Shown here: piece after piece, positions 3,033 through 54,752 of the stretch
Layout of the letters: the number at the start of each line of letters is the position of its first letter
Numbering within the stretch: position 1 is the stretch's first letter
Assembly (NCBI GenBank): GCA_049651785.1
Contig: JBASCT010000022.1
Coordinates: 44-64,043, forward strand
Direction: 5' to 3'
DNA: 64,000 nucleotides
DNA from: Minisyncoccia bacterium
GTDB taxonomy: Bacteria; Patescibacteriota; Minisyncoccia; Phycocordibacterales; Zambryskibacteraceae
Made by a program: the position numbers and the translations under genes
Notes under the pieces: model-generated
Databases searched by the model: none
Seen by the model: only the letters and a program-made list of their open reading frames with translations
Told to the model about the DNA's origin: nothing

Positions 3033-3935
3033 TCAAGCCCGGCGGCGAGAATGGAACTTTTTGTGCGTCTCCTTAAGCTGACGGTCGGTGACGTGAGTAT
3101 AAATCTGGGTGGTCGCGATATTGGCGTGGCCCAAAAAGACTTGAACGCTTCGGAGGTCGGCGCCGTTTGAGAGGAGGTCGGTCGCGAACATGTGGCGGAT
3201 GACGTGCGGAGTCACTTTCTTCGAAATGCCGGCTTTTATAGCGTAGTGCTTGATGATTCTCTGGGCCGTGCGCGTGGTGACGGGGAAAAGAAAATCGTTG
3301 TCGATATCTTTCCGTTTATCCAAACCTGCCTGCGCAGACAGGTATTTTTTTATCGCCGTCTTGGCCTCGGGAGAGAGAAAAACAAGGCGAACCTTATCGC
3401 CCTTGCCCCGAACACTGAATTCGTCGCCGGAAAGATCGAGGTCGCGCGGCAGGGAACAGAGCTCAGAGACACGAAGCCCGGTGGAAAAAAGAGTTTCCAA
3501 GAGTGCTCTGTCCCGAAGGCCGTTTTCTTCTGAGACATCGGGCGCCTCCAAGAGACGCGTAAGTTCTTCGGGGGTTATGAGGTCTATAGAGCGCTCGCCA
3601 ACCTTGGCCAGCTCTATGGCTTCGGGTGAAAGGGTTTTAAACCCGCGTTTGGCGAGATATTTAAGAAACGCGCGCAGGGCGATGAGATAGTAATTCTGGG
3701 TTTTTTTCTTGAGTGTGTCGTTTTTGGCGGGCTGTCTATTGAGCCAGAGCCGGTACTCGCGCAAGATGTTCGGCGTAATCTCGCTTGTTTTTTTCGCCTT
3801 GGAATAGGAGAGGAATCGAGAGAGATACCGGTCGTAATTTTCTACTGTCTTTAGGCTCCGGCCCTTTTCTATCTCGGTGTATTCCAAGAATTCGCGCTTG
3901 AGTTGTTCGAGCTCGAGTGTCGCCATGTCGCACAA
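3033..3935 (-). CDS. xerC: Tyrosine site-specific recombinase, XerC/XerD family
   Basis: 300 aa; C-terminal catalytic signature HVIRHMFATDLLSNGADLRSVQVFLGHANIATTQIYTH (R..H..R..Y). Confidence 0.85.
   Translation of the reverse strand: MCDMATLELEQLKREFLEYTEIEKGRSLKTVENYDRYLSRFLSYSKAKKTSEITPNILREYRLWLNRQPAKNDTLKKKTQNYYLIALRAFLKYLAKRGFKTLSPEAIELAKVGERSIDLITPEELTRLLEAPDVSEENGLRDRALLETLFSTGLRVSELCSLPRDLDLSGDEFSVRGKGDKVRLVFLSPEAKTAIKKYLSAQAGLDKRKDIDNDFLFPVTTRTAQRIIKHYAIKAGISKKVTPHVIRHMFATDLLSNGADLRSVQVFLGHANIATTQIYTHVTDRQLKETHKKFHSRRRA
3325..3342. repeat. Copy of dispersed GC palindrome (CCTGCCTGCGCAGACAGG, one arm mismatch), inside the xerC coding sequence
   Basis: Direct reading; shares the CTGCCTGCGCAG core with copies at 8715, 32488, 33704 and 54688. 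Confidence 0.6.
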
Positions 3936-8714: not shown

Positions 8715-8735
8715 GCCTGCCTGCGCGGGCGGGGC
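8715..8735. repeat. Degenerate copy of the GC palindrome family (GCCTGCCTGCGCGGGCGGGGC)
   Basis: Direct reading; intergenic between the M23 peptidase and pcrA. Confidence 0.4.
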
Positions 8736-31111: not shown

Positions 31112-31117
31112 AATCTT

Positions 31118-31285
31118 AGAGCGGATTGACGTCGTCGAACGGCTCCTCCTCTTCTTCCTCGTCTTCGGCGAGCTCCTCTAGACTTTCATGCTCTTCATCG
31201 AGGATATCGGCGTTCTTTTCGTCTTCCGGAAGCTTAGAATCAAGATCCCCTTCTTCTTCCAATCCTTCGTCAATTTCGTCCATTT
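31118..31285 (-). CDS. Candidate 55-aa highly acidic mini-protein downstream of ruvC
   Basis: Manual translation MDEIDEGLEEEGDLDSKLPEDEKNADILDEEHESLEELAEDEEEEEPFDDVNPL, same strand as ruvC and ending at the terminator. The opposite-strand 31126..31308 ORF is Ser-only low complexity. Confidence 0.3.
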
Positions 31286-31356: not shown

Positions 31357-31881
31357 TCAAATACCCCTTTCAGTTGCAAGATGAGTAATCCCCAGGGCAA
31401 TCGCATCGGTCTCATCATCCAGTATTTTCAATTGACCCTTCATGCCCAAAAGCTTTTTGACCATCAAGGCAACCTCTTTCTTACCCGCCTTGCCGTAGCC
31501 GGTAACGGCCACCTTTACCGTCTGCGGGCCGTACTCATATATTTCAAGCCCGGCCTTGTCCGCCTCGTAGAGAATAACGCCGCGCGCTTCAGCTACGCCT
31601 ATGGCGCTCGTCGCGTTGGTGTTGAAAAAAAGCGTTTCGATGGCGAGCGCCTCGGGGCGCCACTCCCGTATTGTTTTTTTAAGCCTCTTGCCTATTGAAG
31701 AAAGTCTTTCGGCCCCGGTTTTTTTCTTATTTGTTTTAAAACATTCCGAAAAGATAAGTTTGGGATTGCCGCGCTCCTTCGTAAGCAGGGCAATACCGAC
31801 CCTGTCGAAACCGGGGTCAACAGCGAGAATTTTCTTAGGCCGCGTTGGTGTAGACGTCTTGGACTTCATCATTTTCTTCAA
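31357..31881 (-). CDS. ruvC: Holliday junction resolvase RuvC
   Basis: ILAVDPGFDRVGIAL ... EALAIETLFF ... ETDAIALGITH. The true start is probably an internal Met, since the annotated start overlaps yebC by 47 nt. Confidence 0.9.
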   Translation of the reverse strand: MKKMMKSKTSTPTRPKKILAVDPGFDRVGIALLTKERGNPKLIFSECFKTNKKKTGAERLSSIGKRLKKTIREWRPEALAIETLFFNTNATSAIGVAEARGVILYEADKAGLEIYEYGPQTVKVAVTGYGKAGKKEVALMVKKLLGMKGQLKILDDETDAIALGITHLATERGI

Positions 31882-32365
31882 GGGCCTCTATAAGTTTTTC
31901 AAGATTTTTCTCGTCTTCTTCGGAGAGGGCGACGGTCGTTGTCGGTCGCCATTCGCGCCCGTCTTTGACGAAGGCCCAAGTGACGGAGCCCGGTGTTGCG
32001 AGACCAAGGGCGTGTTGCGACAAAATAAATTTTACTTCTTGCGCCGCCTTATTTCTGTTTGCCGTAAGGGCCTCGATTATCAGGGCCGCCCCTCCCGGGC
32101 CGTAGGTTTCGTAAGTCACCGTCTCGAGGTTCTCGTTATCTCCGCCGGCACCCTTCTTGATTGCGCGCTCAATGTTTGAGGCCGGCATATTATATTCGCG
32201 CGCCTTCTCCACCACTGCCCGCAGGGCGGGGGAACTAGTGTCGCCTCCCGCCTCCCTTGAGGCGACGGAGATTAGGCGAGCCATTTTTGAGAAGATTTTA
32301 GACTTAGCCGCATCCGTAACCGCCTTTTTATTTTTTATTTTTGACCATTTGTTGTGGCCACTCAT
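31835..32365 (-). CDS. yebC: YebC/PmpR-family transcriptional regulator (compact form)
   Basis: MSGHNKWSKIKNKKAVTDAAKSKIFSKMARLI...VTYETYGPGGAALIIEALTANRN; 176 aa, shorter than typical YebC. Confidence 0.85.
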   Translation of the reverse strand: MSGHNKWSKIKNKKAVTDAAKSKIFSKMARLISVASREAGGDTSSPALRAVVEKAREYNMPASNIERAIKKGAGGDNENLETVTYETYGPGGAALIIEALTANRNKAAQEVKFILSQHALGLATPGSVTWAFVKDGREWRPTTTVALSEEDEKNLEKLIEALEENDEVQDVYTNAA

Positions 32366-32448: not shown

Positions 32449-33498
32449 TCATAGGAGTTTCTTCTGGCGCCTGGTCGGAACGGTTTTGCCTGCCTGCGCA
32501 GGCAGGCCAAGGTGTTTATAAGCATGCTCCGTCAGCACTCGTCCCCTGGGACTGCGCTCTAAGAGGCCAAGCTGCAAGAGATAGGGCTCATTAAACTCCT
32601 CAACGGTCGCTTCTTCTTCCGAAAGGGCGGCGGCAAGAGTTGAGAGCCCCACCGGTCCGCCGCCAAACTTCTCCGCCACCGTTTCAAGAAGCTTTCTGTC
32701 CGAGGGCGAGAGACCCTTCTCGTCTATACCGAGAAGTTTGAGGGCAAGCTCAACGGTTTCCTTGTCCAAAGAGCGATTCTCGACCTGCGCGAAGTCGCGG
32801 GCCCGTTTGAGGAAGTAGTTTGCCGTGCGCGGCGTGAAGCGCGAGCGTTTGGCGATTTCTTTTTCGGCATTTTTTGCCATTTCGACACCGATTATTTTTG
32901 CCGAACGGCGCAAAATCTCGGCAATCTCTTCTTCGGTGTAAAAATCAAGACGAAAAACTCCGCCGGAAAATCGGCTTCTTAATGGCGAAGAGATCATTGC
33001 CACTCTTGTTGTTGCCGCCAGGAGCGTAAAGGGCGGCAACTCTAGCTGGATGGTGCGCGCCGAAGGTCCTTTGCCGATAATAATATCGAGCACTCCCGAC
33101 TCCATGGCGGGATAGAGGACCTCTTCAACCGTTTTGTTTAATCGGTGAATTTCGTCTATGAAAAGGATGTCGCCCCCAGAGAGGTTGGTGAGGATAGAGG
33201 CCAAGTCTCCGACGCGCTCTATGGCCGGGCCGGAGGTAATCTTTATCGCTCGGCCCGTTTCTTTCGCCACCAAGTGGGCCAAGGTCGTTTTACCGAGCCC
33301 CGGCGGCCCGTAGAAGAGGACGTGCTCGGGCGGAGTGCCACGCTCCATGGCCGCCCGGAGAAGAATCTTGAGATTGTCTTTGACCGCCTTCTGGCCGATG
33401 TATTCGTCCCAGCGGGACGGCCTCAACTCATTATCGAGAAAAGAAGCATAGGCACCCTCTTCTTTGTCCTTAGGCTCCTTACTTCCTTTACTTGACAT
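32449..33498 (-). CDS. ruvB: Holliday junction branch-migration ATPase RuvB
   Basis: 349 aa; Walker A GPPGLGKTTLA, Walker B ILFIDEIHRL, sensor TTRVAMISSPLRSRF. Confidence 0.95.
   Translation of the reverse strand: MSSKGSKEPKDKEEGAYASFLDNELRPSRWDEYIGQKAVKDNLKILLRAAMERGTPPEHVLFYGPPGLGKTTLAHLVAKETGRAIKITSGPAIERVGDLASILTNLSGGDILFIDEIHRLNKTVEEVLYPAMESGVLDIIIGKGPSARTIQLELPPFTLLAATTRVAMISSPLRSRFSGGVFRLDFYTEEEIAEILRRSAKIIGVEMAKNAEKEIAKRSRFTPRTANYFLKRARDFAQVENRSLDKETVELALKLLGIDEKGLSPSDRKLLETVAEKFGGGPVGLSTLAAALSEEEATVEEFNEPYLLQLGLLERSPRGRVLTEHAYKHLGLPAQAGKTVPTRRQKKLL
32488..32507. repeat. Perfect 20-nt GC palindrome GCCTGCCTGCGCAGGCAGGC inside the 3' end of the ruvB coding sequence
   Basis: Direct reading; encodes ...PAQAGKT... 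of RuvB. Confidence 0.7.
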
Positions 33499-33550
33499 AA
33501 AAATTTTTATGTGATAGACTATTTTCCAGCAAATCCGTTCTTATCCAGAG

Positions 33551-33695
33551 CATAAATCTCTAAGCAACGTGCCTCTCGGGGCATTTGGACTTTTCTCTAA
33601 GGACACTCTTGGTATCCCTTGGGATTTCTGAAGCCATCCTCAAAAGAATCGTTTAGCTTTTGGTGTATTCTGAAAGTGTTGCTTAGAGATTTATG
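33551..33695. repeat. 18-bp perfect inverted repeat pair (CATAAATCTCTAAGCAAC / GTTGCTTAGAGATTTATG) enclosing about 109 nt: structured RNA or MITE-like element
   Basis: Direct reading; lies in the 305-bp spacer between pilB and ruvB and contains the inner hairpin ATCCCTTGGGAT. Confidence 0.5.
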
Positions 33696-33703
33696 TGCTG
33701 GAC

Positions 33704-33720
33704 TCGCCTGCGCAGTCAGG
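33704..33720. repeat. Degenerate copy of GC palindrome (CGCCTGCGCAGTCAGG)
   Basis: Direct reading. Confidence 0.4.
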
Positions 33721-33803
33721 ACTCCAGACCCAATTATTCATTCTCCAAGAAACTAATCAATATTGACTAATACAATTTTAATACTTTTAGAGTTTCGCCA
33801 CAA

Positions 33804-35486
33804 TTAATCTATTGACGAAAGGTCCACCACGCGGTCGAGTTCTTCGAGCGTCGTAACACCCTTTAGCACTTTAATTACTCCATCCTCCACGAGACCCAGA
33901 AGCTTTTGTCCCTTAGCTGCCTCACGAATATCGCGTTCGGAAGGATTTTGTATAACCGCTTTTTCTATCTCATTGTCTATCAAAACAGCTTCAAAGACGC
34001 CAATTCGGCCAAGAAAGCCGATATTATTGCACTTGCCACAGCCCAGCGCCTCCCAAACGTGGGCTCTCTGAACCCCCTCTAAATAGGCGGGGTCGGGAAC
34101 ATTGGCAAGAATTTTGTCTATAATTTCCTTCTTTTTACCCTCAAGAGGCACCTCCTTTTTGCAATTCTCGCAGAGCTTACGCACGAGTCTCTGGGCGAGC
34201 GAGATGTTGAGGGCGGAGCTTATAACTTTGGAATTGACTCCGAGATCGAGCAATCTCGGGAAGGCGCCCGCGGCGTTGTTCGTGTGGAGGGTCGAGAACA
34301 CGAGGTGACCGGTGAGCGCGGCGTTGATTGCCGTTGTCGCCGTTTCCTCGTCTCTGATTTCTCCCACCATGATGATGTCGGGGTCCTGGCGCAGGGCGCT
34401 TCTGAGCCCCTCGGCGAAGCTGTAGCCCTTGTCCTCTTCGGCTTGTGTCTGGACGATGCCCTTGAGGTGGTACTCAATCGGATTTTCAATCGTGACTATT
34501 TTTATGTCCGGAGTGTAGATGTGTCTCAAAAAAGCGTAAAGAGTCGTCGTTTTACCCGAACCGGTGGGCCCCGTGGTGAGAATCATGCCGTTGGGTCTTC
34601 TAATCTGTTGCTTAATTATTTCCAAGAGACGCGGGTCAAGACCCAGAGTCTCGAGTTCCACCGCAATCGCGTTCGGGTTGAGGACTCGGAGCACTACAGA
34701 CTCGCCGTAGGGTCCGGGGAGAAGCGAGGTGCGCACCTCGATATCCTCTTCGCCGACCTTAATGGAGAATCTGCCGTCCTGAGCTTTTTCCTTGACGTTG
34801 AGTTTTAATTCGCTCACAAGTTTGATGCGCGAGAGCAAGAGTTCAAAAGTCTCCGAATCGAAGTGGAGAATGTCGGTTAAGACGCCGTCGAGTCTGTAAC
34901 GCAGACGCACCTCTTTTTCTTCCGGCTCGAGGTGGATGTCGGAGGCCTTGAGACTGATGGCACCGGCGAGAATGATTTCAAGAATTTTTGAGATCCGGTA
35001 GGCGCGCTTCAGAGACAGGACATTCTTAATCATCTTAGTGATGTCCTCAAGAGAGTTAACGCTTTTGATTATCTCGAGAATCTCTTCGTTCGAAATGTCG
35101 AGAGAGCCGGACTTGGTCTCGAAGGAGTACGACATATCTTTATAGCGCTCCCAGACCTTCTCAAGACTCTGGTGCGAGGCCATGAAGATTTCCGGTATGT
35201 AGCCCTTGGACTCGAGGAGCGCTATTGCCTCTCGCGTCTTTTCGTTCTCGGGGGAGATGACCGCAACGGCGATGCGCTTATCGGTGGCGTTGAAGACCGC
35301 CAAATCCGCCGCCCTAGCGTCGGCCTCCTTAATCACCCGCAGAGCGTCGATGTTTATAGGGTGGGAGGAAAGGTCGACATAGGTGACGCCGTGACGCCCC
35401 GACAGGGCAGAGGCGAGCTCTTCCTCTTCTCGTTCGAGAAGGGCCTTGAGCTTCTCCTTCTGCTTTTCTTCGTCGAATTTAACCAT
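33804..35486 (-). CDS. pilB: Type IV pilus / type II secretion assembly ATPase (GspE/PilB family)
   Basis: 560 aa; Walker A TGPTGSGKTTT, Asp box, Walker B IIMVGEIRD, His box TLHTN, tetracysteine CENCKK...CGKC. Confidence 0.85.
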   Translation of the reverse strand: MVKFDEEKQKEKLKALLEREEEELASALSGRHGVTYVDLSSHPINIDALRVIKEADARAADLAVFNATDKRIAVAVISPENEKTREAIALLESKGYIPEIFMASHQSLEKVWERYKDMSYSFETKSGSLDISNEEILEIIKSVNSLEDITKMIKNVLSLKRAYRISKILEIILAGAISLKASDIHLEPEEKEVRLRYRLDGVLTDILHFDSETFELLLSRIKLVSELKLNVKEKAQDGRFSIKVGEEDIEVRTSLLPGPYGESVVLRVLNPNAIAVELETLGLDPRLLEIIKQQIRRPNGMILTTGPTGSGKTTTLYAFLRHIYTPDIKIVTIENPIEYHLKGIVQTQAEEDKGYSFAEGLRSALRQDPDIIMVGEIRDEETATTAINAALTGHLVFSTLHTNNAAGAFPRLLDLGVNSKVISSALNISLAQRLVRKLCENCKKEVPLEGKKKEIIDKILANVPDPAYLEGVQRAHVWEALGCGKCNNIGFLGRIGVFEAVLIDNEIEKAVIQNPSERDIREAAKGQKLLGLVEDGVIKVLKGVTTLEELDRVVDLSSID

Positions 35487-54635: not shown

Positions 54636-54687
54636 GGGAAGGGGGTCGGGGAAACTCTAGTTTCCCCGTGGAGGAAGGCAGGGCGAT

Positions 54688-54703
54688 CTGCCTGCGCAGG
54701 CAG
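54688..54703. repeat. Perfect 16-nt GC palindrome CTGCCTGCGCAGGCAG
   Basis: Direct reading. Confidence 0.7.
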
Positions 54704-54752
54704 GAGCCCGTCGGAAAACCGAGGGTTTCCGAGGAGTGAGATAGCGGAGCGT

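Follow-up and report, generated by a model that had tools for sequence, protein, structure and literature searches.

A probable small-RNA gene with a covarying fold, divergent from ruvB in Parcubacteria, and its tentative assignment to the 6S type

The window, i.e., the whole 64-kb stretch of DNA that was analyzed, holds a 305-bp spacer (33499-33803) between ruvB and a gene encoding a T2SSE/PilB-type ATPase (pilB-like). It stems from a MAG of the Minisyncoccia (Parcubacteria/Paceibacteria), and its RuvB shows 100% identity to an NCBI protein of a 'Minisyncoccia bacterium'. The sequence CATAAATCTCTAAGCAAC occurs in this spacer at 33551-33568 on the plus strand and at 33678-33695 on the minus strand with zero mismatches. 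The first-pass annotation had singled out this 18-nt perfect inverted repeat, which proved to be exact at these positions and far above chance, with 0.03 matches expected and two matches in 0 of 100 shuffles. The repeat lengthens to 25 nt (33544-33568/33678-33702) at 92% complementarity, and the interval between its arms, previously given as about 109 nt, measures 109 nt. An internal hairpin reported in this interval, ATCCCTTGGGAT, is present at 33614-33625. Both strands of the spacer fold better than shuffled sequences (z = -4.2 and -4.3, the latter for the minus strand), and a pattern search, blastn of the spacer, and a covariance model (CM) all found the inverted-repeat element in a single copy in the window. 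Two other palindromes noted in the same annotation are also real: an 18-nt perfect AT palindrome, ACATAAAAATTTTTATGT, which extends over the ruvB ATG (9+9 nt; 33495-33512), and a degenerate GC palindrome that abuts the element. The genes and the latter repeat are arranged as follows.

32449-33498, minus strand: ruvB, followed by yebC and ruvC
33804-35486, minus strand: gene for the T2SSE/PilB-type ATPase (pilB-like)
33703-33724 (palindrome 33703-33720), no strand assigned: GC-palindrome insertion of 19 nt that is a degenerate CCTGCCTGCGCAGGCAGG copy, outside the RNA family described below

The closest relative, L082, lacks the GC palindrome that flanks the element, which is a genome-specific 19-nt insertion. 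The family to which it belongs, CCTGCCTGCGCAGGCAGG, has five copies in the window. As an observation in its own right, the alignment of the window with L082 (92% DNA identity) displays two indels over 2.5 kb, both of which are copies of this palindrome.

Homologues of the element were collected by two routes. A RuvB-anchored scan of species-representative genomes, together with look-ups of close RuvB relatives, showed that divergent Patescibacteria carry this inverted repeat upstream of ruvB, with compensatory changes in the outer stem. Metagenome contigs were also scanned for the pattern of the conserved core, CTCTAARCAA-N90-120-TTGCTTAGAG; this search, which places no demand on gene context, yielded at least 120 loci. 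The element lies between a pilB-like ATPase gene and ruvB in at least about 125 contigs of Parcubacteria (Paceibacteria/Minisyncoccia), and the RNA element, for which at least 120 distinct sequences were collected, covaries strongly. Among the matches listed, the order is pilB, element, ruvB, with both genes on the same strand, wherever the contig reaches far enough, and the distance from the element to the ruvB start ranges from 41 to 445 nt. Because the scan pattern fixes the core sequence, the inner 10 bp of the closing stem are nearly invariant in the metagenome set partly by construction. The RuvB-anchored set, which is free of this bias, still shows a highly conserved inner stem, with rare compensatory changes (e.g., CTCGAAGTAA/TTACTTCGAG in L016). 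In that same set, the CM found the element in loci L002-L019, L021, and L029, all with Patescibacteria-type or unclassified labels, and its best-scoring strand was always opposite to ruvB. No element was found by the CM in the Chloroflexi, Firmicutes, and other Patescibacteria lineages of the set, and it was absent from non-Patescibacteria. We thus read the inverted repeat as the predicted closing helix (P1) of a stand-alone structured small-RNA gene with a 159-nt core, the RNA probably reaching ~175-200 nt with its leader. That a small-RNA gene resides on the plus strand of the window is, in our judgment, highly probable.

The RNA is encoded on the plus strand of the window, so that its gene diverges from ruvB and converges on the 3′ end of pilB. 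The counts of G·U versus A·C combinations, the CM scores, and the orientation of a conserved promoter all favor this strand. In the plus-strand reading, the modelled pairs across the alignment comprise 3877 Watson-Crick, 494 G·U, and 129 A·C combinations, and the structure is 91.4% paired on the plus strand versus 83.8% on the minus strand. The CM scored the element in the window at 111 bits on the plus strand and at 60 bits on the minus strand, with a gap of ~50 bits or more in favor of the plus strand at every locus with both strands listed. Upstream of the core, the following features were identified.

33492-33497, plus strand: -35 hexamer TTGACA of the putative RNA promoter; the start codon of ruvB (minus strand, ATGTCAA) overlaps it
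33498-33514, plus strand: 17-nt promoter spacer, which holds most of the AT palindrome and ends in TGA, with the TG of the extended -10 at 33512-33513
33515-33520, plus strand: -10 hexamer TAGACT
33528-33543, plus strand: predicted 5′ leader, with the start placed near 33527/33528 from the position of the -10 hexamer

These motifs make up a putative sigma-70 promoter that is close to consensus and has an extended -10, apparently the strongest in the window; specifically, within the 64 kb, TTGACA-N13-15-TGnTAnnnT is matched exactly at 33492-33520 and nowhere else. Among the matches listed, an exact TTGACA-N16-18-TAnnnT, antisense to ruvB and pointing into the element, occurs in 91 of 103 loci, and the same motif was found at 0 of 103 loci in each of the other three flank/strand combinations. 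A TG precedes the -10 hexamer in 115 of the 118 loci listed, and the spacer measures 17 nt in 94 of the 118. Furthermore, 82 of the listed loci have a -35 hexamer that is the reverse complement of their ruvB start (ATGTCAA). In about one-third of the loci, the -35 hexamer lies off any long ORF start and the promoter is nonetheless conserved; coding constraint is therefore no explanation for its conservation. Judged from the putative starts, the leader varies from 18 to 200 nt among the homologues. As for the opposite end, one large clade has a U7-8 tract immediately after the 3′ strand of P1 on the plus strand, and several other lineages have a canonical plus-strand terminator hairpin with a U-tract 20-50 nt after P1. 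No terminator is evident on the plus strand in the clade of the window itself, and none was predicted in the spacer region on either strand. For the window, we infer the 3′ end of the RNA.

The AT palindrome coincides with the spacer of the RNA promoter and the ruvB ATG, and it is not conserved: the equivalent sequence is not palindromic in L084, L181, and L002, relatives that include some with 88-89% RuvB identity. It had been put forward as a repressor operator of the SOS type, with the advice to look for it at other genes. This idea is rejected, as no second copy with up to two mismatches exists within the 64-kb window, and the Cheo-type LexA box GAAC-N4-GTTC was found in 0 of 117 orthologous regions, with 1-mismatch matches no commoner than in shuffles.

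The predicted fold of the RNA comprises the segments below.

33544-33568, plus strand: 5′ strand of the closing stem P1, whose inner 10 nt, CUCUAAGCAA, are nearly invariant
33569-33584, plus strand: 5′ central segment, predicted by folding as the small hairpin GUGCCU CUCG GGGCAU; variable, and missing in one clade
33586-33655, plus strand: long apical arm (P3a-d, with internal loops), containing the conserved AGGAC...AUCCU and UGG/CUG helices
33614-33625, plus strand: variable terminal hairpin of the apical arm
33656-33677, plus strand: 3′ hairpin P2′, facing the 5′ central segment and closed at its base by CUUU...AAAG; predicted for 112 of 119 homologues
33678-33702, plus strand: 3′ strand of P1, GUUGCUUAGAGAUUUAUGUGCUGGA

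To quantify pairing, a structure of 40 modelled pairs (24 in P1, 4 in AGGA/UCCU, 7 in the adjoining helix, and 5 at the base of the 3′ hairpin) was scored on an alignment of 120 sequences from the matches listed. Compared with shuffle controls, which ignore phylogeny as far as pair counts are concerned, 91.4% versus 78.5% of the cells were paired and 595 versus 158 cells carried double changes. The slid-partner control, which does correct for phylogeny, remained far below the observed covariation score (at most 0.114 versus 0.405); shuffles scored 0.167, and 0 of 500 were as high as the observed value. Compensatory changes on both sides affected 31 of the 40 modelled pairs, and a CM-made alignment gave the same covariation picture. 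The AGGA/UCCU and adjoining helices were 97.9% and 89.2% paired, respectively. Compensatory changes affected 9 of the 11 pairs in these two helices, and both-side changes were seen in 5 of 5 modelled pairs of the 3′ hairpin P2′. Covariation in the alignment thus supports four predicted helices.

Per-sequence MFE folding of sequences from the matches listed predicted P1 in 119 of 120 and P1 enclosing three branches in 79 of 120, the predicted branches in most homologues being the 5′ hairpin, the long apical arm, and the 3′ hairpin. The RNA folds as a rod composed of P1, the 5′ central segment, an apical arm of ~70 nt, and the hairpin on the 3′ side. P1 measures 24-25 bp, and the median lengths are 15 nt for the 5′ central segment and 70 nt for the apical arm, the other central segment being 25 nt long. 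The 5′ central segment is a predicted hairpin in 88 of 119 homologues and is single stranded (~12 nt) only in the L018-type clade. Where this hairpin is present, the predicted junction is compact, with ~6-7 unpaired nucleotides per side and no open bubble. The 5′ central helix is built from different sequences in different clades. The pairs of P3a/b and of the 5′ hairpin rest on per-sequence folding and inspection, and the all-against-all column covariation scan was too noisy. Across the fold, the conserved nucleotides sit in helices, not in single strands.

Of the readings offered by the first-pass annotation, a structured noncoding RNA with a long closing stem is the one that conservation and covariation in ~120 homologues bear out, for the plus strand; its 6S-like variant stands as a leading guess only. 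The Rfam check of both strands that had been suggested matched no family: Rfam 15 returned none, 6S included, at E ≤ 10 for the region 33400-33900 and for 20 homologous loci. A gathering-score scan of the 64-kb window identified tRNAs elsewhere and no 6S match, and looser scans delivered only chance matches. Several other candidates were considered and rejected. A tRNA or tmRNA was predicted by neither ARAGORN nor Rfam. The flanks of the element encode the T2SSE ATPase and RuvB, and a reverse transcriptase is absent, which speaks against a retron msr-msd RNA. DnaA-like boxes occur in one subclade, but the site in the window is without the skew switch or box cluster of a replication origin. In the literature that we searched, we found no description of an RNA at this locus, of 6S RNA in Patescibacteria, or of noncoding RNAs in the Candidate Phyla Radiation (CPR).

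The RNA presumably acts in trans as an abundant protein-binding molecule, with a 6S-type function as the most likely role. Protein recognition is favored over pairing through single-stranded seeds because the conserved features are helices, namely, the inner P1 duplex and the G·U-rich apical helix. In that role, it would mimic an open promoter to bind the housekeeping RNA polymerase holoenzyme, the 5′ central segment might be a template for product RNAs, and the gene would fill the 6S slot that Rfam models miss in the window and in 20 related contigs. In size and shape, the RNA resembles 6S, with a 159-nt core, a length of at least ~175 nt when counted from the predicted start, a P1 of 24-25 bp, and an apical arm with a median of 70 nt. 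The pRNA template of Escherichia coli and Bacillus subtilis 6S RNAs carries the motif CCGA..A, and inspection of the 5′ central segment by eye revealed no convincing counterpart. A polymerase-binding RNA of the 6S type is thus our leading guess, plausible and unproven, and the explanation as a whole, with its 6S-type mechanism, is put forward tentatively.

It is possible, though doubtful, that the gene specifies a stand-alone plus-strand sRNA of a new class unrelated to 6S, with a protein partner and function of its own that would operate via the invariant inner P1 and the G·U-rich apical helix, e.g., as a component of a cloverleaf-like four-way-junction RNP. All the gene-level evidence applies to such an RNA, no Rfam family was matched, and folding predicts the compact four-way junction for 79 of 120 homologues. 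The confinement of the conserved nucleotides to helices, with an inner P1 that is conserved also in the unbiased set, points in the same direction. However, the dimensions and gene organization fit 6S, an RNA that to our knowledge is near-universal in bacteria and would otherwise be unaccounted for here, and the sequence itself names no partner or function. A more specific version, which we regard as rather unlikely, is a hitherto unknown, abundant RNA class particular to Paceibacteria, built around a four-way junction, whose invariant 10-bp duplex would be recognized by a dedicated protein. Because of the unbroken linkage to ruvB-yebC-ruvC, such a class could be tied to the Ruv machinery, e.g., as a junction-shaped decoy or regulator.

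Regulation of ruvB-yebC-ruvC in cis, either by occlusion of the ruvB promoter or start by the plus-strand promoter or by an RNA antisense to a long ruvB 5′ UTR, seems improbable. It would account for the linkage to ruvB, which is invariant among the matches listed, and for the position of the -35 hexamer over the ruvB ATG at most loci. Moreover, a weak promoter-like sequence in the ruvB sense, TTGATT-16-AATAAT (33760-33733), located ~25 nt upstream of the core, would generate a ruvB UTR complementary to the RNA. This sequence is found at 13 of 110 loci, the clade of the window included, and such a sense promoter is therefore not general. The RNA, for its part, runs away from ruvB without overlapping its coding sequence, and the promoter is still conserved in the one-third of loci whose -35 hexamer is off the ruvB start. 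Antisense action would not require the deep conservation of internal helices with G·U pairs on the plus strand, and the bidirectional terminators that several lineages have between pilB and the RNA speak against read-through.

That the element belongs to the minus strand is very improbable, whether as a riboswitch or structured 5′ leader of the ruvB operon, one of the options of the first-pass annotation, or as a pilB terminator. We ourselves had started from a ruvB-sense model, based on the invariant U·G pair that the AGGAU/GUCCU helix forms on the minus strand, and dropped it after the A·C/G·U tally and the promoter result. The minus strand does fold well (z = -4.3, as noted above), and the element is always upstream of ruvB among the matches listed. 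In contrast, A·C mismatches dominate on this strand, the CM prefers the plus strand by the margin given above, no conserved minus-strand promoter was found, and the distance between element and ruvB start varies widely. As for a pilB terminator, none was predicted, with no terminator-like site in the region on either strand. Finally, a feature acting at the DNA level is scarcely credible, be it a MITE with 18-bp terminal repeats as once suggested, a cruciform, or protein-binding sites with the AT palindrome as an SOS operator. In its favor are the perfect inverted repeat, far above chance, and the equally perfect AT palindrome. Against it, blastn identified a single copy in the 64-kb window, and the element recurs at the same locus in all of the at least about 125 genomes; the MITE reading is refuted. 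The arms covary with G·U-type pairs confined to one strand, a pattern that pairing of DNA would not tolerate, and the AT palindrome is unconserved, without a second copy in the window or a LexA box.

CPR bacteria account for a large share of bacterial diversity, and the element described here is a widespread structured RNA that has no Rfam family and is served by the best promoter in the window. If it is the 6S RNA of the clade, it would widen the known diversity of 6S and provide a model for annotation in thousands of MAGs; if not, it would be a new class of abundant RNA in organisms whose regulatory repertoires are minimal. The annotation of the locus is corrected in either case, in that the ruvB start codon is embedded in the -35 box that serves the divergent RNA gene.

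Among known systems, sRNAs of divergent or cis-antisense promoter regions share with this gene the interleaving of the promoter with the start of the opposite-strand neighbor and the invariant linkage, whereas the RNA described here leaves ruvB without ORF overlap and its structure covaries far beyond what antisense action needs. Bacterial Y RNAs of the YrlA type are similar in the long stem formed by the ends, the conserved and presumably protein-binding duplex, and the cloverleaf-like branched domain. They differ in that Rfam returned no Y RNA match, no conserved T-loop-like loop was seen, ARAGORN detected nothing tRNA-like, and the adjoining genes are pilB and ruvB rather than rsr/Ro. Compared with 6S RNAs, no covariance model matches, the 5′ central segment is usually a predicted hairpin that results in a compact junction, and P1 is almost bulge-free, whereas 6S closing stems are usually bulged. 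Its nearly invariant 10-bp inner closing stem is a trait for which we know of no counterpart in known 6S RNAs. The likeness to 6S lies in a core of ~160 nt plus leader, a rod shape, a long closing stem in which the 5′ and 3′ ends pair, an apical arm interrupted by small internal loops and capped by a terminal loop, and a predicted hairpin opposite the 5′ central segment (112 of 119 homologues). It extends to the gene, which is monocistronic, with its own strong sigma-70 promoter, a terminator in several lineages, and one copy per genome region, and to a rigid synteny beside an opposite-strand recombination gene, ruvB here and rarA for 6S in Firmicutes, RarA being an AAA+ protein related to RuvB. 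A hairpin opposite the 5′ central bulge has been described for the 6S RNA of LAB and for B. subtilis 6S-1 (PMC8414754). 6S RNAs are monocistronic and highly abundant transcripts with a terminator, and in B. subtilis and other Firmicutes they display strong synteny next to rarA, in the opposite direction (PMC8414754).

Five copies of an 18-nt GC palindrome, CCTGCCTGCGCAGGCAGG, are present in the window, one of them within ruvB and another beside the RNA gene, the small structured RNA encoded between ruvB and the pilB-type ATPase gene:

3325-3342, CCTGCCTGCGCAGGCAGG copy
8716-8733, CCTGCCTGCGCAGGCAGG copy
32489-32506, CCTGCCTGCGCAGGCAGG copy internal to ruvB
33703-33724, CCTGCCTGCGCAGGCAGG copy beside the RNA gene
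54687-54704, CCTGCCTGCGCAGGCAGG copy

The ruvB-internal copy results in a 6-aa insertion (LPAQAG) that is missing in all close RuvB homologues. Alignment of 2.5 kb with the closest relative revealed only two indels, which are the CCTGCCTGCGCAGGCAGG copies in ruvB and next to the RNA gene. Two more copies lie inside long ORFs; the homologue comparison covers the ruvB copy and the one flanking the RNA gene. CCTGCCTGCGCAGGCAGG looks like a recently mobile mini-palindrome, capable of in-frame insertion into genes. An identical RuvB was found in only one other assembly, L001 (Logan contig SRR28011868_28389). This contig stops 137 nt upstream of ruvB, i.e., within the RNA gene, and the long hairpin may have caused the assembly to break there.

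The divergent promoter of the RNA gene carries the ruvB start codon within its −35 hexamer (ATGTCAA/TTGACAT; 33492-33498), an arrangement found in 82 loci. A weak promoter-like site that may serve ruvB itself was also identified, which is common only to the clade of the window:

33760-33733, minus strand, TTGATT-16-AATAAT, weak promoter-like site

The operon order is ruvB-yebC-ruvC, with yebC and ruvC (31357-32365, minus strand) overlapping by 47 nt; ruvA is absent beside ruvB in the window. Downstream of ruvC lies an extremely acidic 55-aa ORF (31116-31283, minus strand), and both L001 and a further compared locus, L084, have a gene called at this position that is 54 to 55 aa long and has no Pfam match.

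An origin-like skew switch is absent from the window at the RNA gene locus, and the window's clade lacks the tandem DnaA-box-like 9-mers present in one subclade (L100, L114, L138, L141, L101, L199, and about 12 more loci). In this subclade, the RNA leader, from the conserved promoter to the closing helix P1, extends over 100 to 160 nt and carries three such 9-mers, TTATCAACA, GTATCAACA, and CTATxCACA, at positions +15, +26, and +38 after the −10 element, followed by a conserved ATTATAGCATTT and then a second −10-like sequence, TAGTATAAT. These DnaA-box-like 9-mers may confer DnaA-dependent control or act as a roadblock.
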